Assembly (NCBI RefSeq): GCF_004010195.1
Contig: NC_057757.1
Coordinates: 6,520,682-6,568,818 of the forward strand
Source of the DNA: Chiloscyllium plagiosum
Taxonomy: Eukaryota
Length of the DNA stretch: 48,137 nt
Direction of reading: 5' to 3'
Position numbers and translations under genes: made by a program. Every line of letters starts with the position of its first letter. Within the stretch, counting starts at the first letter, position 1. The notes below the pieces were generated by a model that saw only the letters and a program-made list of their open reading frames with translations, had not been told where the DNA came from and did no database searches. This document shows, piece by piece, positions 10,182 to 48,137 of the stretch.

Positions 10182-10964
10182 ATGATCGGCAAGAAGAAGA
10201 GCGGCTTCCAGATCACCAGTGTCACCTCGGAGTACGAAGGCAGCACCGGCGGTGAAGGGCTGAGGGAGCCACCGGGCGGAGAGGCGGAGGCTGTGGTGAA
10301 CGGGGATCCGGGTGTGGGCCCCTCGGCCGACACCGAACTGCCGGGCAAGGACGGTCGGACTAAGCCGCCCCCGGCAACAGCGGGACAAGGCACCGCCGGC
10401 AGGGAGGTGCCAAAGGAGACCGGGACAATGGCAACGGGGACGCTCCCCGGGACCAGGTCCCCCCCGCCGCCGGCCCCCAGCCCCTGCGGCTCCCGCTTCC
10501 GGGTGGTGAAGCTGGACCACGGGCTGGGCGAGCCGTATCGCCGCGGCCGGTGGACCTGCGTGGACCTGTACGTGGACCGTGAGCTGGACGCCCACGGGCT
10601 GGCCAAGGTGCTGGCCGGGAGCCGCCACGTCAACTCGCTGGACTCTCACCCGGAGCTGGGCGCCCTGCTGGCTCACCGGGCGGTCAGCCAGCTCCGGCCC
10701 CGGCCCCACGCCCCCAAGAGCCAGGGCTCCCCCCTGGGCGAGAGCCTGCCGGCACCGGGCACCGACACCCTGCACGTGCTCCTGCAGGCGGCCCGCACCC
10801 TCAGCCTGGACTCTCCGCCTGCTCCCCAGGAGAAAGGGGACCCAGCGGCGACGCCTCACCCTGCCAACCAGCCACACGGAGCCAAGGCTGGTGCCAGGGA
10901 GACGACCTCGCCCCCGACGAATGTGAAGCATCCCTCCTCGGGAGATCAGGGAGGACTGAGGAAG
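10182..10964 (+). CDS. TSC22D4: TSC22 domain family protein 4, first coding exon
   Basis: ATG at 10182 starts MIGKKKSGFQITSVTSEYEG (TSC22 long-isoform motif 1), followed by SRFRVVKLDHGLGEPYRRGRWTCVDLY (motif 2). Motif 1 at the extreme N-terminus and the GLGEPYRRGRWTCVD text match TSC22D4. The exon ends at AAG|GCAAGT (GC donor, phase 0). Confidence 0.9.
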
Positions 10965-12490: not shown

Positions 12491-13441
12491 GCAGCTTGCT
12501 GCAATGGAGCGTTTGCCCGGCCTGTTTCAGGTGAGCCGGTGCCTGTCCTGACTGAGCCCCCATGAGTGCCGTGCAGTCTGTTCAAACACACTCGTGTCTG
12601 TCATTGTGTCTACTCATAATATTTACACTGGGCTCCTGCCAAAAGGTTCCTGCGCAGCGGAGCTCATCGGGATGTTCGTGCCCTGTCGGGAGTGGGGGAT
12701 GGAAGGTTTGGAGAAGGAAGCAGCGCACTGTGTTATCATCAAACCCCAGTCAGCTGGTTCACATGGAGGAAGAGTTTCCCCTGTCTTCCCTTCCGTTAGA
12801 CCGAGGATTTGCACTGTGCTGCTATTCCCTCACAAATGACAGAAGGCTGAGCCACAAGAGGAGGCCATTCACCCCAGCCAGGCTGTGCCAGCTCTCTGAA
12901 AGGGCTATCCCGCCCTCTCCCGGACTTCCCTCTGGACAGATTTGTCTGATTTCTGCGCCTGTACCCTCCTTGGAAACGTATCAGACCTCTCATACAGCCT
13001 TCCAGACCGTGTGCACATCCAGCTTATGGATCGTTTGCATCAATCTTCCCTGTGTTCCCCGTCTGTCCTGCCTGTGGGAAGTTCCCCCCCACCCCACCCC
13101 CGTCCAGTCTTGATGAAACCCCTCATGGGTTTGAGCACCTGTACTCAATGCCACGCCCCTGACCCCTGACCCTTCTCTGCTGTAAGGAGCGTGATCCCAT
13201 TTACCTCTACACCAATGGAAGCCCCTCGTCCCTGGTCGTCTTCTGATAAAGCTTCTCTGCACCTTACCCAGAGGCCTGGATGCCTTTCCTAAGGTGTGGT
13301 AGGGAGCACGGTGTTTCAGCCATTCACCCCACCCCCCCGTGGGGTTTCAGCGCGGCCTCCTCCCCTTCGGGACGTTGTTGTGATCGGGCCCCGTCACTGC
13401 ATGTGGTGGTGAAGTGACTCCTGTCTCTCCCTCCCCACCAG

Positions 13442-13623
13442 TTTCCTGAGCCTCAATCCACATCGGTGTCGCCGGTCCCCCCTGCCCAGGACGGCAGCCC
13501 TTCCCGAAAGCTCCGTGCCTCGGAGGCCAGCGCTGCCGGCTCTCTCCGGTTCGTCTCGCCCATGCAGACGCTGGCCAAGTCCATGCTGTCGGTCGGAACG
13601 CAGCCGGACAGTGACGACGACAG
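13442..13623 (+). CDS. TSC22D4: TSC22D4 second coding exon
   Basis: Acceptor ctgtctctccctccccaccag|TTT, phase 0. Encodes FPEPQSTSVSPVPP...MQTLAKSMLSVGTQPDSDDD(S), resembling TSC22D4 LAHSMLAISGHLDSDDDS. Donor GACAG|gtacgc is phase 2, the usual junction before the TSC-box exons. Confidence 0.85.
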
Positions 13624-13676
13624 GTACGCCTGGCCACCTGGGGTGGGAGGGGAGGTGAGGCGACAGGAGGTGCAGA

Positions 13677-13840
13677 ACCCCAATCCCCCACAGAGGGAGG
13701 GTCGGGGGGGGGGAGCGACAGACCCACGAGACCCCCAATCCCCCACGGAGGGAGGGTGGGGAGTGACAGGCCCGCGAGACCCCCAATCCCCTACAGAGGG
13801 AGGGTGGGGAGCGACAGGCCTGTGAGACCCCCAATCCCGT
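13677..13840. repeat. 48-bp tandem repeat, ~3.3 copies
   Basis: acccccaatcccccacggagggagggtggggagtgacaggcccgcgag units at 13731 and 13779 plus flanking copies. Confidence 0.85.
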
Positions 13841-15765: not shown

Positions 15766-16384
15766 AAAACGTTACTGAAGTGTGGTTGGCTGTTGTTACT
15801 GGACTGAAGGGATCCACAAGGCAATGGATAAACAGGGGTGAGCCGTCCCAATTGGCTGAAGGAGAAAGCCAGCCGCCAAGTTGGCATTGCAGTGCAGCTT
15901 CCAGAGTGGGAACTGAACCCGTGACCTTTGAGGTCACTCGGAGTTAGCAATCAGCCAAGGCTGCTGCCTTTGTGCAGCCTTCAAGGGGCAGGGAGGGCTG
16001 CTGCCAGGGAGGTGAAATCAGCACAACCCAGGGCCTCTGTGAAGCTGGTGCTATCTTGCTGCACTAGGGCAGGCTCTCTGTTCTTTGCTGTGTGTACACA
16101 AGATAGTGAATCAGCTCGTGACCAAACAGCCAGCTCTACGTTCGGCTTGGCACAGACCTCACAGAGCGCTGGGTGACGTGAGCAGTGCGGCCTCTGGGGG
16201 CCATCACCATCACGTGCTGCAGAACCTTGGCTCGATGCAGAGCTGCTTAGACAGTGGCTCAGGGTGTCGGGTATCAAACAATCCCATCACTTGGCGGGCA
16301 GGTGGCCCAGAGCTTGCTTGGGAGGGAAGGATGGGTTTCAAGGAGACGAGAGAGGCAGGGAGGTCTGAGGAAGGGAAATCCAGA

Positions 16385-38046: not shown

Positions 38047-38546
38047 NNNNNNNNNNNNNNNNNNNNNNNNNNNNNNNNNNNNNNNNNNNNNNNNNNNNNN
38101 NNNNNNNNNNNNNNNNNNNNNNNNNNNNNNNNNNNNNNNNNNNNNNNNNNNNNNNNNNNNNNNNNNNNNNNNNNNNNNNNNNNNNNNNNNNNNNNNNNNN
38201 NNNNNNNNNNNNNNNNNNNNNNNNNNNNNNNNNNNNNNNNNNNNNNNNNNNNNNNNNNNNNNNNNNNNNNNNNNNNNNNNNNNNNNNNNNNNNNNNNNNN
38301 NNNNNNNNNNNNNNNNNNNNNNNNNNNNNNNNNNNNNNNNNNNNNNNNNNNNNNNNNNNNNNNNNNNNNNNNNNNNNNNNNNNNNNNNNNNNNNNNNNNN
38401 NNNNNNNNNNNNNNNNNNNNNNNNNNNNNNNNNNNNNNNNNNNNNNNNNNNNNNNNNNNNNNNNNNNNNNNNNNNNNNNNNNNNNNNNNNNNNNNNNNNN
38501 NNNNNNNNNNNNNNNNNNNNNNNNNNNNNNNNNNNNNNNNNNNNNN
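38047..38546. other. Assembly gap of exactly 500 N (probable arbitrary-size scaffold join)
   Basis: Round length, unlike the other gaps (5796-6304, 7764-8475, 13938-13987, 31004-31215, 33195-33238). Confidence 0.85.
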
Positions 38547-38668
38547 GACAAGGGGTATATGTGAGTGACGGGAGTATATGTGAGTGACGGGGGTATCTGT
38601 GAGGGGGTGTTGGTGGAATGTGCCTAGTATTTCCTGAAGCCCTCTGTGCACTGGAACATTGCCAACAG

Positions 38669-38914
38669 GTGGAGTTCTACTTCCTGTCTCAGTACGTCTC
38701 TGCCACTGACACACCTTTCCGGCACATTCTCCATGGACGGGGTGACCACACACTGGAAGCCCTTTACAGACATTTCCAACTGCTTAAGGACAAGCCGAGC
38801 AAGTTTGACGAGAAGAAGTTCCGGAAGCAGTTGGCCCTGGTGACATGGACCCTGCAGGGAGCTGCCAACGCTCTGAGTGGAGACGTCTGGAACATTGGTA
38901 ACAACAGCTTCTAG
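38669..38914 (+). CDS. TFR2: Transferrin receptor 2, last coding exon (C-terminal helical/dimerisation domain)
   Basis: cag|GTG GAG TTC TAC starts [32 protein letters not shown]...[31 protein letters not shown]. Diagnostic residues are TFR2-type ([26 protein letters not shown]) rather than TFR1-type (VEYHFLSPY, GSGSHTL, TWTIQG, VWDI). Confidence 0.93.
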
Positions 38915-39044
38915 AACGTCCAGATCATCAACACCGTTGACTCATTCTTCACTGACCCTTCACTGAGAGAGGGAGTGTGCTGTGGGCCTCCTCAAACCCT
39001 GCCAGACTTGGTTCAATCACCACTCGTTCGAGGCTTCCATGCAG

Positions 39045-39240
39045 CATCTCTCCCCTCCTTTCTGTCCTCTGCTCATCCTTCACTCCTCTCCCCTCCTTCT
39101 CATCTCTTCCTCTCCTCACCCTTCCCTCCTTCTCCCCTCTCCATCCTCACCTCTCCTCCACCAGTCTCCTCTTCTCCCACTCTTCCTTCACACACTCGCT
39201 CCCTCCGAACCTCTCTCTTCCTCCTCCAACCCTTCCCAGG
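39045..39240. repeat. CT-rich low-complexity tract in proximal TFR2 3' region
   Basis: Near-continuous pyrimidines on the + strand. Confidence 0.8.
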
Positions 39241-40393
39241 ATAACCAGGGGCGGAGGGGGTGAGTAAAGAGGACTCCCCGTTCCCATGTCTTTCTGATCA
39301 ACACCAGATGGCATGTCAGTTCATGTCCCACGCATCTTTATCTCTGTTTCCGACTCCCCACCCCACATCACTTTCTCCCCATAATTCCCTCCTCTATCTT
39401 TCCATCTTACTCTTCTGTTTTTCCCTCTTTCGCTGTCCGCCTCCTTTTTCTCCACAAGATGGAATTGTCTGCACATTAACCGTTTCACTTTGAATTCCCG
39501 CCGTTTAACCTGTGCTATTGCGTCAGGATCAGTAACTTCGAGTTCAGTTCAACATTGGACCATCAATCTCTGGTTGGGAGTTCACGTCCCTCCCTGACTG
39601 AGGTGCAAAATTGATTTAACTTTTAAAAAATCCAATAATTTTCAGTTTAAATTTCAAATCTCTATTGCCTAAGGTTAGATTCTCCAACACAGATGGGGGT
39701 GTTGGAGGGAGGTTCATTCTTGACTCTGGTCCTGTGATAACTTTTATGCCCCCTTCACGATCTGGTGGTGAGTAATCTGAGGTCATCGTGACAAAGTTAA
39801 ATATGAATGGTACCGAAACAGGCCATTTGGCCCACCCGCTCCATATGTTTCTGTTCCATATGGACCTCCACTCCCATTCCTCCCTTTACATGTTGTACAA
39901 ATATAGGAAATTAGGAGGAGCGGGCCTCAAGTCTGCTCCAATTTGAGAGAGCTTTGAAGATTCACAATCCTCAGAAGTGTCCCCTTGACCATCAGAGATA
40001 GGAGCAGAAGGCCATTCAGCCCATCGGATGTGTGCTGCCATTCAGAGATCACTGCTGACCTGATAATCCTCAGGTTCTGAAACAAGGTCTTCTATGCCTC
40101 AGTCAAACTGCCTCTTAGCCTTCCAGCAGAGTTTCACCCCCATCACCTTCTTATTCCTTTCTCCCTCCTGTTTATCCAGTTTTCTCTTGACTGCTTTGAC
40201 ACTATATTTGCCTCAACCACTTTGAGGTCGCAAGTTCCCCATTCTCACCGTTCATATACCACATAAGGAGATTTCTCTTCACTACCACAGTGACTTTCTG
40301 GTGTTGATGATCTCTATGTATCCGCAGTCTAATCTCTGCAAGAGTCTGTCTCATGAAATTTTCCAACATAGTTTTGAGGACATCTTATGATGG

Positions 40394-40671
40394 TCATGAT
40401 TGGAGACGCTGGTGTTGGACTGGGGTGTTGAAAATCCCACAATACCAGGTTATAGTCCAACAGGTTTATTTGGAAACACTAGCTTTCAGAGCGCTGCCCC
40501 TTCATTAGGTGGTTGTGGAGAATAAGATTGTAAGACATGGAATTTATTGCAAATTTATTCTGTATCTTACGATCTTATACTCCACAAGCACCTGACGTCG
40601 GAGCAGCGCTCCGACAGCTAGTGCTTCCAAATAAACCTGTTGGACTCTAACCTGGTATTGGGTGATTTTTA
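40394..40671. mobile_element. Second family of Penelope-like inverted-repeat element
   Basis: Arms ccaggttatagtccaacaggtttatttggaa... and ...ttccaaataaacctgttggactctaacctgg, with flanking direct repeat atcttat(g/a)atgg. A related fragment lies at ~28690-28795. Confidence 0.7.
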
Positions 40672-40893
40672 ATCTTATAATGGCTTCTCTTTTCTAGTGA
40701 AAATAATGTAGTTGTGTTCAGTCTTAAGTCAATACCTCTGTCATGTTCTTTTCCAGAAAGTAACTTAAAGATGGGAATTTAAAGTGAATAGATGAATGGC
40801 TAAAAAATGTCACGGCAAATGAAATTAGATTGTGTGTTTGTCCATCCATATCTAGTGCTGGTGTCTAGACTCCGGTTGTCATCAATGATTGTT

Positions 40894-40926
40894 TAATTTA
40901 TCAGGGACAGTGATCACTATAAATTA
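40894..40926 (+). promoter_or_regulatory. Iron-responsive element 1 (TFRC IRE-A-like)
   Basis: TAATTTAT-C-AGGGA-CAGTGA-TCACT-ATAAATTA: 8-bp lower stem, bulged C, CAGUGN loop, and an upper stem with one G.A mismatch. Confidence 0.75.
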
Positions 40927-40944
40927 TTTTTGTAATATATTGTT

Positions 40945-40973
40945 AATTATCGGAAGCAGTGCCTTCCATAATT
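40945..40973 (+). promoter_or_regulatory. Iron-responsive element 2 (TFRC IRE-B-like, canonical)
   Basis: AATTAT-C-GGAAG-CAGTGC-CTTCC-ATAATT: perfect lower stem, C bulge, 5-bp upper stem and CAGUGN loop. Confidence 0.95.
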
Positions 40974-40977
40974 CCAA

Positions 40978-40988
40978 CAGTTATACTG
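40978..40988 (+). promoter_or_regulatory. Non-IRE triloop hairpin immediately 3' of IRE 2
   Basis: CAGT-TAT-ACTG. The same text follows IRE-B in human TFRC as I recall it (GACAGTTATACTGTC). Confidence 0.5.
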
Positions 40989-41069
40989 GCTTTGAATGGA
41001 AAAAGCATCTTCTGTTTGTTAGAAGCCAGGTGGTAGAGGCAAGTTGTTGGCAATGCTCAGGTTAGTCAA

Positions 41070-41240
41070 GCTGCCATTTTGTAGTTTTCCCTGTCTTCAA
41101 TGGCAGCCATTTTGTAGTGCTCCCTATCTTCACTGGCAGCCATTTGCATTGGCCCCATGTTGGCTGGCCACTTGCAGCGTCCTCTGTCTTCATCAGCAAT
41201 CTGCTATCTTCAATGGCAGCCATTTGCAGAGCCATCTGTC
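41070..41240. repeat. Degenerate ~33-bp repeat with GCCATTT cores
   Basis: gccattt at 41073, 41106, 41139 and 41219 within cttcaatggcagccattt-type units. Confidence 0.6.
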
Positions 41241-41845
41241 TTTGTGTGGACATCTGCCATACCTCTATCCCGCCATCATTATGATTCCTGTGTGGAATCT
41301 CCTTGGGGATTGCAGGCTGTCTGGTAGGATTTTTTAAATGCTTTCCTGAAGTGTAGACTGATCCTTTAATTTGTTTTGAAAGCAAAAGCTCTGAGGAGTT
41401 ATTGGTGCTAAGTCAAACATCTGAAATCCAATGCGGGAACACCACTGCCTGCAAGTTCCCCTCCATTGCCCATCCTGACTTGGAAATATATTGCCATTCC
41501 TTCAGTGTCACTGGGTTAAAATCTTGGAATTCCTTCCTCAATGGAACTGCGCATGTTCCAACACTTAAGTGAAGTGCAGGGGTTCAAGAAAGCAGTTCAC
41601 CTCCCACCTCCTGGACAGCTAAAGATCGACATGGTGCTTATGATCCCTTTAGAAATGTATCCCTTGCAACGCCCAACTCCCCATCTACACCCTAAATCTG
41701 ACTGCTCTTGAAATAGAGACAAACAAATGGCAGCAGAGCATTGCCAATAAGAGAGACATCATTGTACGAGGGGCACATCAGCATTGGGATCCTCTAGTAC
41801 GAATACTGCCATTAATCTATCAGCTATTGATAAAGAAAACGTGTT

Positions 41846-41874
41846 AATTATCGGGAACAGTGCTTCTCATAGTT
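41846..41874 (+). promoter_or_regulatory. Iron-responsive element 3 (TFRC IRE-C/E-like)
   Basis: AATTAT-C-GGGAA-CAGTGC-TTCTC-ATAGTT: fully paired with two G.U pairs, and extendable by GTGTT/AGCAC. Confidence 0.92.
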
Positions 41875-42226
41875 CAGCACATTGCTTACTTGTTGAGGCC
41901 TAGTTATTTACCCCCACTGACCTGAGTCTGTTGTGTACCTGTTTGTTTATGCTTTGGTTGGTTTGATGTGCCAGTCTAATGAGAGGGTCAACCTGTAACC
42001 ACATTGGCCATACCCACTCTCTTCCTTTCAAGCGTAATATGCTCTGGATCGAGGGGTGCAGAGTTGGGGGAAGATGGCACTGTACCAGTAACTGAGGATG
42101 GTGGGGGGGGAAGAAAAGGGGTGTGTGTGTGTTTTCTTTTTAAAACCATCTGTCAGAGCTTTGTGCTGTGCTGCTCAGACTGGCCCAGAGTCACCATAAA
42201 ATGCTTCAATGTATCACAACTGGAGA

Positions 42227-42232
42227 ATTAAA
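42227..42232 (+). terminator. Candidate distal poly(A) signal for TFR2 (ATTAAA)
   Basis: PAS-type hexamer after the last IRE, followed ~30 nt later by a G/T-rich stretch. Confidence 0.35.
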
Positions 42233-42314
42233 AATTTAGCCAAACTACAAAGCTGCCTTGGGTTTAGTTCCTACCTAACTCTGTTGCTCCAACCAGAGAC
42301 ATCAGCAAAGCTGA

Positions 42315-42730
42315 TACAGGTCATTCTGCTTGAACGTGTGATTCATTAATGCGAATACCCGATTGATGAATTATAGAGTTATAGAGATGTACAATGTGGA
42401 AACAGACCCTTCGGTCCAACCCGTCCATGCCAACCAGATATCCCAACCCTAATCTAGTCCCACCTGCCAGCACCCGGCCCATATCCCTCCAAACCCTTCC
42501 TATTCATATACCCATCCAAATGCCTGTTAAATGTTGCAATTGTACCAGCCTCCACCACTTCCTCTGGCAGCTCATTCCATTGTTTCTAAAGTGCCAACTT
42601 TTAAAACACGTGTTGGCTGTGACAGGACTGCATCACCAACACTTTAAGCGCTGTTTCTAAAGCACAATTTTTTTTAATAACGGGGGTCACACAAGAACGT
42701 AACTATGTCATTACAGAAAAACTACCTGTA
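42315..42730. mobile_element. Possible Tc1/mariner-pogo MITE interrupted by the LINE tail
   Basis: TA-caggt...acctg-TA ends with imperfect inverted repeats. Confidence 0.4.
42372..42580 (-). mobile_element. HER1/CR1 LINE 3' tail
   Basis: Family tail text on the minus strand. Confidence 0.88.
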
Positions 42731-43364
42731 GGTGTGAGTGAGCCAAAAAACACTGAATGGTTCTCAGCTAGTGCTTATAGGAGAGAGAGTTTTAAATTGG
42801 CTCATCTGGTCTCTTACATTGCACTGTCAGTCAATCACTATTTCTGCTGACAAGTATTGGTCCACTCTCTCCACCACCCATCTCAGTAGCAGCAGCAGCA
42901 TGTACCATCTACAAGATTCACTGCAACACCTTTCTAACTTCTAATCTCATCACAGAGAGACTAGGGCAGCAGATACATGGGAACACCATTTGCAAGTTCC
43001 TCTCCCACCATCCTGACTTGGAAATTTATTAGCCGTTCCTGCAGTGTTGCTGGGTCAGAATCCTGGAGCTCCCTCCCTAACGACACTGTCCCCAAACAGA
43101 CGGCAGCGATTTAACGCAGCAGTTCACTGCCACCTTCTCCATTACCGATAGGCAACAGTTGCTGGCCTCGACATTAATGCCCATATGCTGTGTACAAACA
43201 AAGTGGGCGTGGTGGCCAATGTGGCCCATGCCAAATCTGGCAAGGATTTGGTGCTCTGAGCTAGGCCCAGCTTTCATTCTGCAAGTCAGCCTGACCTGCA
43301 GAACAAGGGAAGAGAAAGGGGGGGGGATAAAGAGGTGTAGGTTAAGCACATGATCAAGGTGGTA

Positions 43365-43630
43365 AAAACAATGACTGCAGATGCTGGAAACCAGATTCTG
43401 GATCAGTGGTGCTGGAAGAGCACAGCAATTCAGGCAGCATCCGAGGACAGGCAAAATCGACGTTTCGGGCAAACGCCCTTCATCAGGAATGAGACAGGGA
43501 GCCTCCTGGGTGGAGAGATAAATGGGATGTTAATTCTCCTGCTCGTCGGATGCTGCCTAACCGGCTGTGTTTTTTCAGCACCACTCTAATCTCAACTCTG
43601 ATCTCTGGCATCTGCAGCACCCACTTTCGC
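43365..43630 (-). mobile_element. Penelope-like hairpin-family element(s) with intact hammerhead-like core
   Basis: Minus strand CTGATGA-A-GGGC-gttt-GCCC-GAAAC-GTC at 43459-43486, with family text gcagatgctgg...gctggaagagcacagc...ggcagcatccgagg. Confidence 0.65.
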
Positions 43631-44079
43631 CTGGTGGGTTTGAATCCTGTCAAATGGCACATGGTGGAATCTGAAATCAGTACAAGTCTGGAATCAAGGG
43701 TATAATGATGACCATGAATCCACTACCCAGTGTCGGATGAACCCACCTGGTCCACTAATGTCCTTTGGGGAAGGAAACTGCCATTATTACCTGCTCCTAC
43801 CTACATTGTGGGTGGCTCTTAAACTCCTCTCTGGGCAATTAATGCTGTCCTCAGCCCTGTTACCCTCATGGCATGAAGGAATTGAATTTTAAAGGGCATT
43901 CCAGAGGCCCATACTCATGCCTTGGGGACACAGGTTAAAATACCACCATGACAACTGGTGAAATTTAAGTTAACAAATCAATCTAGCCAGCTAGTTACAG
44001 AAACACATGGCTGAGACACGGGAACTTGGAACGCAACAAAGAGAAAAATCAAACAGGATTTAAAACAATAGCTGACGCC

Positions 44080-44085
44080 TTTATT
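44080..44085 (-). terminator. Poly(A) signal AATAAA of an unidentified convergent gene
   Basis: The minus strand reads ...ttgtatttgcactttgcaaaaaaaaatagaacttgtacaaatgtaaag...gtgttttAATAAAggcgtc followed by a T/GT-rich tract, a typical mRNA 3' end. Confidence 0.6.
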
Positions 44086-45514
44086 AAAACACCACGTGGG
44101 GCCCAAAGGGGCATAAGTACATTTGGTCGGACTTTACATTTGTACAAGTTCTATTTTTTTTTTGCAAAGTGCAAATACAATTCTTTTTTTAAAATTAAAA
44201 AAAATCTGTTGTGAGTTTACACAGGACTTTCATTCATTCTGACATCCAAATCCCAATTAATGTGCACAGATCTTCAAAAAAAAAATGAAAACACACGTGC
44301 GCGCACACACACACACACACACACGCAGAAAACCCAGAATATATATTAAAAAGTTACAGCGCCCCAGTCGGTGACAACCCCTATCATTATTTCGAGCACA
44401 TGCACACATGCAGCAGCAATCTGGGAATTTCAGGCTGGAGAGCGGCAACCAGAGGTCAACTCTGCAAACCGTTGTTGGAGGAGATTATGTCAGCTTCTTG
44501 CTGCACTGAGAAGGTGGACAAGGCCTAGAGCACAACCTCCCAATGAGACCCTGACAACAGCACATAGCCATGGTGCACAGAGGTCTCCTCCCATGGGGAC
44601 CCGGTTCCTCCCCTTTCCCCAAACATCCCTACCCAGCCCACAAGACAACTAAAAACACTCTGCTACCAGTCCTGCTAACCCACTACCCTATTGAAACAGA
44701 CAAAGTCCGTAGCTGGATGGGGCAAAGATGATTAGCTGATTAAGACCCACCCTAGCAACCCATGCTACTTTCCCTCATCCTAACCAGTCCTAGAGAGTTG
44801 GTTGCTGCAGTAGCTTCTCCCTCAGACTCCGTGGTACTGAGAGAACACTGATGGGTCAGGATTAACCATCGCTTAGTTGGAGAAATTCCTTCAATTTGAG
44901 GGAGGATTAGTCAGGCAAAACATTCCACACCAAGGCTCCCAGAACAGGGACAGCACAGGGTAAAGCTTCCTCTCTCTCTGTTTCAGCATAGGATTGGTGT
45001 TCAGCTGCAGTACACACCACATGTGAATATCCTACACTGGGCCCCACAGGGTGACCAGTTGCCTAAAACATCAGTGAAGGACAAGATGAGGCTGGAAATG
45101 TGCCACATCAAGACAGTCTTGGTCAACTCCGAGCTGCCCCCCACTCCACTATCACTATCTCTGAACTTACCCAAACAAAATCAAGAACAGCTCCTTTTCT
45201 CATGTTCAATATTCCCAAAGCCCCCTCCCTCCTCCACCCCCAACCCAAAGGCATCTCCTACTACACATTTTAACCTCTCCCACTTTCCCCAGTCGAAGGT
45301 CACCCATTCACTCCAGTTACTCCCACCTTAGGCCAGTCAAGTGCCCCACCTATAGGGGCCAGTCTCCGAAAGAGATAAAGTGCTCAAGTACCGACCAATT
45401 GCCGGACCACTCGCATGAGGAACCTTCCCTTATTGCAATGCGTGCTTTTCCAAAAGTAGAGAACTACGGAAATCGCAGACTCTCTCCAGTTGGGGTAGTG
45501 TCTAGACTTTATAA

Positions 45515-45576
45515 CTGAAAATGTGTTGCTGGAAAAGCGCAGCAGGTCTCCAGCATCTGCAGACCTCACTTTCTCC
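45515..45576. mobile_element. Internally deleted hairpin-family element with 14-bp TSD
   Basis: tctagactt(t/c)ataa is duplicated at 45501-45514 and 45577-45590. Confidence 0.75.
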
Positions 45577-47289
45577 TCTAGACTTCATAAACCTTATTGG
45601 TCACAGTCTCTATTACAAATCGTCTAGAGGCCGTATTCTGAATCAGTGGCATTGTTAGTGTCAACAGAGACCTGGAGTTAATGGAAATAACGGAGTGCAT
45701 TTCAACCCAGGGATCACTGGTTTAAAGATGTGCAGCACATTCCCAGGCAATTGAGGGACATATTTATCTGGGGCACTGGGGAGTGCGTCCCTTGTCCTGG
45801 ATAAAATTCAACTGATGGAAGAGCAAACTCCTTCCTTTGTAGAAATACTCAAGCATCGGTCAGCAGGAACTAAGCGTTACAGACTCGCAGTGCAAAGGGG
45901 GAGTTCACAGATTCACAAGAAAACCGAGAAAACAAACCCAACAGACGACAACCCACAGGAGAACCCATCTGAACATTACCGGCGAACGAGATCTCCAAGG
46001 ATTGTGGGGTCGGACCACCGTCCCTTTGTCAGAAAGATCAACCAGCTCACAGCCAGCCCGTTTAGAAGGGTAGTACAGCACATCATTTCTTGGTTCCAGG
46101 AAACTGGAAGTTAGCGCTTCGGACAAGAGGTGGCCATTCAGCCCTTCCAGTCTGGCCCAACATTCAATAAGAGCATAGGCACCACACCCTCTGGTTACAA
46201 ACCAATGCTCCATATTCATCCAGCAAAGATCTCAGTACAATGGTTTGAATCCAGGCAATACAGCCCCCTTTTTTTGAGGTGGGAGGGGGTTAGGAGGTGG
46301 TCTTTACCAGCAGCGTCTGAAATAATGTAACTTCTTCATCTCAATAATTCCATGTTAAATTTACACCAGCTTATACAACTGTAAGACCAGGCTCCTAGGA
46401 GCCTGCTCCATAGTGCACACACTGTGAGAGAAAGGTTTCACTTTCGCATCATTCTGAAGGGACGGTAAGATAAAATTTCCTTCATTGTAAATGCAATCTC
46501 TGTAACATGGGAACTATGGGTTCTCTCCAGTCAGAGCCCAAATCCACCCCCAGTCCGAAAGCCTGATCGAGAGCTGGCCCCACGGGAGAAGGGATTCAAG
46601 GGTTAAACCAGAAAAAGATGAAGTGGGAATGAGAATCATTAGATCGAACTGAATGACAAAGCAGACCTTTCTGTTTGCACATTCTGCAGTCAGAAAGCTG
46701 TGAGCTCACTCACCTCCTGCACCTCTACACGGTTTAACAGCAACTTGGAAAACAGGAGCCTACTCTGGTATTCATTATCACAGCTGATCATCAACTCCAT
46801 CCCTAATCCCTGCTTTTGCCCAGTACCCTTTCATCCCTCACTGGGTGAAGTGATTTCCCATCTCAGTCCTGAATGGCCTACTCTGTATCCTGGCTCTGGA
46901 CTCTCCAGCTCATCGGGAACACCCCTCCTGTGTGATCTAATCCTGTTGGGATTTTATAGGTTTCTGAAATTTCCACCCCTCGTTCCTCAGAATTCCAGTG
47001 AACACATTCCTCGATTCACACACCAACATTAGCCTCCAAACCGCTGCAATGCAACTCCACAAATACATACTCCCAACATAACTGCCCACCCTCCAAATAA
47101 ACCACAGTTCAAACACTTCTTGGTACAGTACTTACTGGTTCCAAATAATGGGGATCAAGAGCAAAAGCAGTCGATTATTTTTTTTCTATTACAGGGGGAG
47201 CAAAAGTAAACTTCTTCATTCAACCCTACCAGCCACACTGGGGCTGGAGAGAGACAGAGCCTACAGGCGAGCATTGGAAAGTGACAAAG

Positions 47290-47915
47290 ATATACATTTT
47301 CCTTCATGTGCGGTCTGGACAGAGTAGATGGGGAGAATTGATTGTCAAGGATGAGGGGGACGTGTAAAAGGAGCAAGGGTGAGACGAGGTGAAGGAAAAT
47401 CATCTTCACCCAGCGAGCAGTTCTAGTCTGGAACACACCGCCTTGAAATAGGGTGGAGGCAGGTTCGACTGAGGCATTCAAGGGGGCACTGGATGGGTGT
47501 TGGGATTGAAGCAAGGATACGGTGAAAAAAGGCAGGAGAGTGGCACTTGGGGGATGGGGGGGGGGGGCGAGAATTTACAAAGTGCAGATGTTCCTTCATG
47601 CTTTTAAAATATCATGAGTGGGAGAGGAGTAGATCTGTTTCAGACGAGTGGGAGTGGTGCGTCTCTGTGCCCCTCCGTGCATGTCCCTCTCACAGAAACC
47701 TGTACAATCCTGATGGAACTGGACAGGCTACATGCAGGAAGCATGTTCCCAATGTTGGGTAAGTCCAGAACTAGGGGTCACAATCTAAGAACTAGGGGTC
47801 ACAATCTAAGAATAAGGGGTAAGGCCTGAGAAAAGGGAGAATTTCTTCACTCAAGAGAGTTGCAAACCTGTGGAATTCCCTCCCACAGGAAGCTGTCTGG
47901 GCCAGTTCACTAGAT
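47290..47915 (+). mobile_element. Degenerate CR1 fragments
   Basis: SRTRGHNLR text including a short tandem duplication agaactaggggtcacaatcta, and WNSLPQE-like text. Confidence 0.75.
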
Positions 47916-48137
47916 AGAGTGAGAAAGGAAGAGCGGGTAGGGTTAGGAGAGAGAGGGGGGAACGGGCAAGGTGGGAGGGAGAGACAGACAGACGCAGGTT
48001 TTCCTTCGCGCCTGGGCTAGCCAGGGCAGAGAGATTTCCACCCAGCGAAAGGAACGAGGCGGCAAGGACCGTGGATTTAAAAAAAGAAAGGGGACGGGTT
48101 GAGAAAAAACAAGAAAGGAGGGGGAGGGAGACGGAGG

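Follow-up and report, generated by a model that had tools for sequence, protein, structure and literature searches.

A TFR2 exon and the hairpins behind it

We analyzed a window of 48,137 nucleotides (nt) from the shark Chiloscyllium plagiosum, the window being the whole stretch of DNA under study, and we concentrate here on the last coding exon of the transferrin receptor 2 gene (TFR2) and on three hairpins that lie downstream of it on the same strand and resemble the iron-responsive elements (IREs) of TFRC, the gene for transferrin receptor 1 (TFR1). The features that carry the analysis, as assigned from sequence, are the following, with scores given against the Rfam family IRE_II:

38669..38915, + strand: last coding exon of TFR2, with 81 codons, TAG at 38913-38915, and an AG acceptor at 38667-38668
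40895..40925, + strand: IRE hairpin 1 (A-like), 32.5 bits, loop CAGUGA, C bulge, -5.7 kcal/mol
40944..40974, + strand: IRE hairpin 2 (B-like), canonical, 41.4 bits, loop CAGUGC, -7.6 kcal/mol
41845..41875, + strand: IRE hairpin 3, canonical with one G.U pair, 31.9 bits, loop CAGUGC, -7.6 kcal/mol

Translation of 38669-38915 gave an open frame of 81 residues ending at the TAG, and mapping of proteins to the window showed that TFR2 is represented in it by this last exon alone. When the exon peptide was compared with a large protein collection, 302 proteins matched at E <= 0.001 among 328 candidates. The top match, 100% identical, was a 496-residue model of Chiloscyllium plagiosum named "TSC22 domain family protein 4" (P0002), and the remaining named matches among the 120 listed were overwhelmingly "transferrin receptor protein 2." Among the matches listed, those named TFR2 spanned sharks, rays, ray-finned fishes, lungfish, coelacanth, amphibians, reptiles, and mammals; three listed matches (P0097, P0101, and P0105) carried the UniRef name "Transferrin receptor protein 1," and several others were unnamed or "hypothetical." In a comparison with solved structures, the exon aligned less closely, with the C terminus of human TFR1 (E about 6e-25).

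Phylogeny was then inferred from 39 rows, i.e., 19 TFR2-named and 18 TFR1-named proteins, hand-picked for taxonomic spread from two 120-row match lists with all other rows omitted, plus two shark exon peptides. The tree was made with a "quick" method and a midpoint root, without an outgroup, and the two exon rows (81 residues) fill 10% of its columns. The exon from the window fell inside the chondrichthyan TFR2 clade, with values of 98, 99, and 100 in the Shimodaira-Hasegawa-like approximate likelihood ratio test (SH-aLRT) for the three smallest sets enclosing it. The split between TFR1 and TFR2 itself received an SH-aLRT of 100, and the last exon of a second receptor gene of this genome, located on contig C13 and described below, fell within chondrichthyan TFR1. 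Since the TFR1 and TFR2 clades each contain cartilaginous and bony vertebrates, the duplication is older than the split of these two groups. Altogether, the tree and the names of the best matches agree in assigning the exon to TFR2 and not to TFR1, the identity that an initial annotation of this DNA had proposed for it.

The hairpins were evaluated with an Rfam scan of 4,227 families on both strands of the whole window, repeated on 38547-48137, in which IRE_II (RF02253) is the model for IREs of the TFRC type and has a gathering score of 30 bits. Hairpins 1 to 3 matched IRE_II over its full length (positions 1-31 of 31), and no other match in the window reached the gathering score. A genome-wide search with IRE_II, which scored only 87 out of about 1.06 million first-look candidates, returned three matches at E <= 0.001, two of them IREs of TFR1 and the third hairpin 2. 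All three hairpins have a common anatomy, with UAUC leading into an upper stem of five positions and a CAGUGA or CAGUGC loop, and, when folded singly, each adopts the IRE shape of a lower stem, a bulged C, an upper stem, and a CAGUGN loop; the latter is the six-base apical loop given as SIREs motif 1 in Table 2 of PMC12230718. A motif scan of both strands found eight sites with the pattern C-N5-CAG[AT]GH-N5 and at least four of five upper pairs, of which only hairpins 1 to 3 also had five of five lower-stem pairs.

The C bulge and the lower stem are thus found in all three hairpins, and the upper stem is fully paired (5/5) in hairpins 2 and 3; that of hairpin 1 is 4/5 paired, with a G.A mismatch in the middle. 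The initial annotation had described three sense-strand IREs, each with a five-nt upper stem; the IRE_II matches bear out the hairpins, with coordinates that agree within 1 base, and the claim of a complete upper stem fails for hairpin 1. To this we add a structural alignment of the eight hairpins of TFR1 and TFR2, in which 94.8% of 96 cells are paired and both partners vary in 8 of 12 pairs, values reached by 0 of 500 shuffles. Sliding the partner lowered pairing to 40-45%, and, within the inner 11 pairs, the sole unpaired cell was the mismatch of hairpin 1. By these structural measures, hairpins 1 to 3 are IREs of the TFRC type, two of them canonical and one weakened. Hairpin 1 starts 1,980 nt after the stop codon, and hairpin 3 ends 2,960 nt after it.

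Transcript cover of the 3' region

Transcript evidence came from assembled contigs of three public runs from independent studies, here called X5, X10, and X11; such contigs show neither transcript ends nor levels. X11 carries a different organism label and represents a relative about 93-96% alike; the differences in its contigs amount to roughly 4-7%. The contigs of the two deeper runs align as follows:

X5: 38668-40440, 40554-40813, and 40845-42105, with mean depths of 21.4, 21.8, and 28.8
X11: 38668-39098, 39193-40424, 40632-41465, and 41487-42096, with depths of 58.6, 70.4, 56.4, and 79.9

The first of the X5 alignments belongs to a contig of 3,998 nt that consists of 2,207 nt of upstream letters not fitting the genome, followed by 38668-40440. 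Read in frame, the 30 letters before the junction encode NRMYNDKIMR, which agrees at 9 of 10 positions with the end of the penultimate exon of shark TFR2 (NRIYNDKIMR) and at 6 of 10 with that of shark TFR1 (CRTYNNRIMR). Contigs of X10 and X11 depart from the genome at the same base, 38668. This shared break lies at the acceptor, and the junction contigs are spliced TFR2 complementary DNA. Further downstream, the X5 contig 40845-42105 includes all three IREs, and the X11 contigs cover both IRE stretches; X10, at a depth of 3-5, has the junction and pieces of the 3' untranslated region (3'UTR) up to 41816, none of them over the hairpins themselves. A raw single-cell RNA run, X20, placed 0 reads here, which has no bearing either way. 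As a silent-stretch control, no depth at all was seen in X5 or X10 over the intron before 38668 and over 42722-43389, an observation that speaks against carry-over of DNA.

Two points count against this interpretation. First, the runs are RNA only by a guess and by the splice junction, and contig depth is a poor measure of level. Second, no contig bridges 40441-40553, which falls in a high-copy inverted repeat, or 40814-40844, so that one continuous mRNA is an inference across two breaks. The initial annotation had placed the hairpins in the 3' region of the TFR2 gene, and this holds insofar as the sense side is covered to ~42105 by contigs of runs that contain the spliced TFR2 junction. Its companion claim, that the assembly has no gap between the exon and the IREs, is correct, there being no run of undetermined bases (N) in 38547-48137, yet the exon is immediately preceded by a 500-N gap (38047-38546). 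The IRE-bearing stretch probably belongs to one continuous TFR2 transcript, whose 3' region has these further features:

38916..42250, + strand: inferred TFR2 3'UTR of ~3.3 kb, with contigs to 42105 and an end near 42250 inferred from ATTAAA and the lack of cover beyond
42227..42232, + strand: ATTAAA, probable poly(A) signal for the long mRNA with the IREs, with contig cover stopping just before it
40630..40635, + strand: AATAAA inside the inverted repeat, possible upstream poly(A) signal; no other AATAAA or ATTAAA lies between the stop codon and the IREs
40428..40672, no strand assigned: inverted repeat of a high-copy element, with 121-nt arms that are 83% complementary, where the contig chain breaks
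40978..40988, + strand: small UAU-triloop hairpin of 4 bp, directly 3' of hairpin 2, -2.1 kcal/mol
41073..41145, + strand: 33-nt tandem repeat in 2.2 copies, followed by looser copies as far as about 41228, in the interval from hairpin 2 to hairpin 3

The two breaks leave room for another interpretation, in which 40845-42105 would be a separate RNA that starts past a TFR2 poly(A) site near 40650, as the AATAAA at 40630 and the lack of any contig joining 40440 to 40845 would allow. Against this, the segments on either side have similar depth in each of three runs that differ about 15-fold from one another (about 4, 21-29, and 56-80), and the breaks coincide with the high-copy inverted repeat and with a gap of 31 nt, both typical places for an assembly to break. 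Moreover, stop-to-stop frames of at least 70 amino acids number 28 in 42250-48137, and none of these was exon-like on inspection, no homology search of them having been made. To our knowledge, multiple IREs of the TFRC type are found solely in 3'UTRs, which also speaks against a separate RNA. We regard such an RNA as highly improbable and retain the continuous TFR2 transcript. Rfam gave no match above threshold in 42250-48137, nor in the 9.9 kb that follow.

Several observations concern the 3'UTR itself. Its first 300 nt contain a CT-rich, low-complexity tract (39048-39240) of CTCTC-like units and imperfect repeats of 24-25 nt. Depth in X11 was very high over the inverted repeat 40428-40672. 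Over one arm of this repeat (40584-40634), an X5 contig has eleven listed differences from the genome, all of them A>G on the + strand. A cluster consisting of A>G changes only is what A-to-I hyper-editing of a double-stranded 3'UTR segment would leave; X5 has another organism label, so allelic differences may also account for it.

The TFR1 gene of the shark and the origin of the IREs

When a catshark TFR2 protein was searched against the 3.56-Gb assembly to which the window belongs, a second receptor gene was found on contig C13, with a last exon 48% identical to the query. The best matches of this exon were shark and ray proteins named "transferrin receptor protein 1-like" (14/14), and we therefore take the genome to have a separate TFR1 gene on C13. 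Rfam located the IREs of this gene within about 310 nt, the first of them ~2.9 kb past the stop codon:

L025 5957-6267 (G000:C13:53977456-53977766), - strand: TFR1 IRE cluster with five IRE_II matches

Their loops are CAGAGU in the first, CAGGGA in the last, and CAGUGN in the other three.

A sensitive blastn comparison of the TFR2 3' region with 9.7 kb of the TFR1 3' region aligned TFR2 40886-40988 with the IRE A-B stretch of TFR1, at 79% identity over 111 nt (E of 1e-20). The alignment runs past hairpin 2 into the UAU-triloop hairpin, which has 7 bp in TFR1 (-5.9 kcal/mol) and 4 bp in TFR2 (-2.1 kcal/mol), and, apart from single hairpins, the remaining UTR sequence of the two genes found no match in the same comparison. 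The spacer between hairpins 1 and 2 differs from that of TFR1 by a 7-nt indel and many changes. Over their 31 positions, the individual hairpins compare as follows:

Hairpin 1 with TFR1 IRE-A: 26/31 identical
Hairpin 2 with TFR1 IRE-B: 30/31 identical
Hairpin 3 with TFR1 IRE-E: 25/31 identical
Hairpin 3 with TFR2 hairpin 2: 25/31 identical, with a 5' flank also common to both

On this alignment, hairpins 1 and 2 together with the triloop hairpin are homologous to the module of IRE A, IRE B, and the first non-IRE hairpin in TFR1. The initial annotation had likened hairpins 1 and 2 to IRE-A and IRE-B of human TFRC; the likeness found here is to IRE-A and IRE-B of the shark's own TFR1. Similarity that is limited to functional elements fits an old shared cassette under selection in both genes. 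Beside this module, we observed a 4-bp hairpin with a CAU triloop (AGCA/UGCU) at 41876-41890, right behind hairpin 3. It resembles a 5-bp hairpin, AGCAG-CAU-CUGCU, located after the UAU hairpin of the TFR1 3'UTR, and it is short enough to have arisen by chance.

The same data bear on a different history, in which TFR2 would have received the IRE module of its 3'UTR as a copy of that of TFR1, through ectopic gene conversion or some other kind of transfer, in an ancestor of the elasmobranchs; such a secondary acquisition would change the origin of the IREs, not their function. Hairpin 2 is nearly identical to IRE-B (30/31) though IRP (iron regulatory protein) binding needs no fixed stem letters and IREs C, D, and E have other stems, and the similarity between the two UTRs is restricted to one 111-nt patch and single hairpins. 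Hairpin 3, equally like hairpin 2 and IRE-E and sharing its 5' flank with the former, could for that reason be a local duplicate. However, TFR1 is on contig C13 and TFR2 on C48, and the diverged spacer, the 5 of 31 differences in hairpin 1, and flanks that fade fast indicate that any transfer was not recent. High identity confined to functional elements is, moreover, what long purifying selection on an old cassette would be expected to produce. We consider acquisition by TFR2 after the duplication unlikely, and the old shared cassette remains the origin that we pursue below.

Both IRE stretches, those of TFR1 and TFR2, are single-copy in the 3.56-Gb assembly save for their match to each other; they are, therefore, neither part of a repeat family nor a misassembled piece of TFR1. 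Hairpins carried by a transposable element were ruled out on the same ground. That the 3'UTR of TFR1 was wrongly joined behind the TFR2 exon might be suspected in a region where the assembly is visibly broken, with a 500-N gap before the exon, middle TFR2 exons on unplaced contigs, and the penultimate exon absent. Such a misjoin is extremely improbable, since the DNA from the exon to the IREs contains no N, the module is just 79% like that of TFR1, and TFR1 retains five IREs of its own. A misassembled TFR1 sequence is also contradicted by independent contigs from three studies, in which the exon-UTR and IRE stretches recur with flanks that are not those of TFR1.

The gene itself is scattered in the assembly. 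Candidate 5' exons of TFR2 share the scaffold of the window, C48, where they lie at 6491679-6494059, 27-29 kb before the window begins, and middle exons are on three unplaced contigs (C98897, C97512, and C87855). A search of the assembly for the penultimate TFR2 exon matched only that of TFR1, and the exon probably lies inside the 500-N gap 38047-38546. TSC22D4 sits between the 5' and 3' parts of TFR2, an arrangement that may be a scaffolding error. The model P0002 is a chimera that combines three TSC22D4-like exons with the terminal TFR2 exon and reaches over 22 kb and three N gaps to do so. Of its residues, the first 416 map to 10182-10964, 13439-13705, and 16067-16273 and the last 82 to 38666-38911, all on the + strand.

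Putative iron control of TFR2 and its meaning

On balance, we think it probable that this hemiscylliid shark makes a TFR2 mRNA with a ~3.3-kb 3'UTR in which three TFRC-type IREs, of shared origin with those of TFR1, are bound by IRPs and place the message under the control of iron. At low cellular iron, IRP1 and IRP2 would occupy hairpins 2 and 3, with weak or no binding at hairpin 1, and the TFR2 mRNA bound in this way would be shielded from decay. With plentiful iron, the IRPs would depart and the mRNA would be degraded. The level of shark TFR2 would thus be set by cellular iron, like that of TFR1 and unlike that of mammalian TFR2. IRP binding and its effect on stability are proposed here by analogy with TfR1, which is why hairpins 2 and 3 are taken as the stabilizing sites. 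In its account of TfR1, PMC8058555 describes IRPs on the IREs as protecting the mRNA, which Roquin otherwise degrades via three non-IRE hairpin loops in a region of ~200 nt.

An IRP system is plausibly present in the shark, because TFR1 keeps five IREs and the genome has three aconitase-family loci, among which IRP1, IRP2, and mitochondrial aconitase were not told apart. We also located a hepcidin-family exon at G000:C100387:9045-9140 on the + strand (locus L028; Pfam PF06446, 48.1 bits against a cut-off of 27). With a hepcidin gene present, this animal may also have the hepcidin axis in which TFR2 operates in mammals.

A number of findings must be set against iron control of the shark TFR2 mRNA. 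The decay side is the weak point, as a single, reduced non-IRE hairpin is recognizable. This UAU-triloop hairpin, which may correspond to loop I of the work on Roquin, has 4 bp and a folding energy (-2.1 kcal/mol) no better than that of 62 of 200 shuffles, and triloop hairpins of the Roquin type are not enriched near the IREs, with 7 found versus 3.7 expected and at least as many in 43 of 500 shuffles. The IREs are strung over 980 nt, with the tandem repeat and repeated elements between them, versus the ~310-nt cluster of TFR1; hairpins 1 and 2 are 49 nt apart from start to start, and hairpin 3 follows 901 nt further on, past the repeats, so that the three do not make up a compact cluster. Beyond its mismatch, hairpin 1 is lost from the minimum-energy fold of its 140-nt context, while hairpins 2 and 3 are kept. 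Use of the AATAAA at 40630 could give a short isoform without IREs. Conservation was seen in near relatives alone, where neutral DNA would persist too. Finally, mammalian TFR2 lacks regulation through IREs and IRPs, as a review of TFR2 (PMC6316356) states for Tfr2-alpha.

Some of these findings would also be expected if the hairpins were a relic, i.e., still transcribed, no longer regulated by iron, and slowly decaying. The mismatch of hairpin 1, the repeats inserted between hairpins 2 and 3, and a neighboring non-IRE hairpin that is down to 4 bp all lend themselves to such a view. Hairpins 2 and 3, on the other hand, keep every defining feature of an IRE and fold as IREs in their context, and the changes between hairpin 3 and hairpin 2 preserve pairing. 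If the cassette is old, unconstrained hairpins of 31 nt are unlikely to have stayed 25-30/31 identical while the remainder of the UTR became unalignable. We judge a loss of function improbable and continue to favor IREs that act on TFR2 mRNA.

Among known systems, the nearest is the 3'UTR of TFRC, with which shark TFR2 has in common the IRE_II family, the anatomy of the hairpins, and a long 3'UTR with IREs 2-3 kb past the stop codon; between the two shark genes, the likeness extends to an alignable A-B module and the UAU-triloop hairpin. The differences are that TFRC has five IREs, A to E, whereas shark TFR2 has three, one of them mismatched; that the IREs of shark TFR1 occupy ~310 nt and those of TFR2 980 nt; that the non-IRE hairpins are weak or missing in shark TFR2; and that the host gene is a paralogue. 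Mammalian TFR2 encodes a protein orthologous to that of the shark, but IREs in the mRNA tail are on the shark side only. A possible parallel is offered by SLC11A2 (DMT1) and CDC14A, whose 3'UTR IREs stabilize mRNA in low iron without the full TFRC cluster and which are named as validated IREs in PMC12230718 and PMC8466369; these are, however, single IREs of other sequence types, whereas the three of shark TFR2 are of the TFRC type and homologous to those of TFR1. These two reviews of IRE families list TFRC, and the word TFR2 occurs in neither. In our search of the literature, from which subscription journals were largely missing, no paper described an IRE in a TFR2 mRNA.

The lack of IREs commonly serves to set TFR2 apart from TFR1 and forms part of the case for TFR2 as a sensor rather than an importer. 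As a tentative proposal, which we hold to be possible and which the initial annotation had put forward in its inference that the IREs predate the duplication, the cassette of IRE A, IRE B, and the adjoining decay hairpin may have been present in a single receptor gene before the duplication, with shark TFR2 still regulated by IRPs and its abundance tracking cellular iron; loss of the IREs toward mammals would then have accompanied a shift of TFR2 from an iron-regulated uptake receptor to a protein-level sensor of the hepcidin pathway. The question of origin can be addressed cheaply with public genomes, by way of the TFR2 3'UTRs of cartilaginous and early bony fishes. The UTR of shark TFR2, with IREs and reduced non-IRE hairpins, would be a natural test of which regulatory parts of TFRC are needed, and a second question that it opens is the age of the 3'UTR branch of the IRE/IRP network. 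A TFR2 that retains IREs of the TFR1 type would provide a dated, testable entry to the division of tasks between the receptors after their duplication, and TFR1 and TFR2 may both at one time have responded to cellular iron, a form of regulation that mammalian TFR2 does not have.

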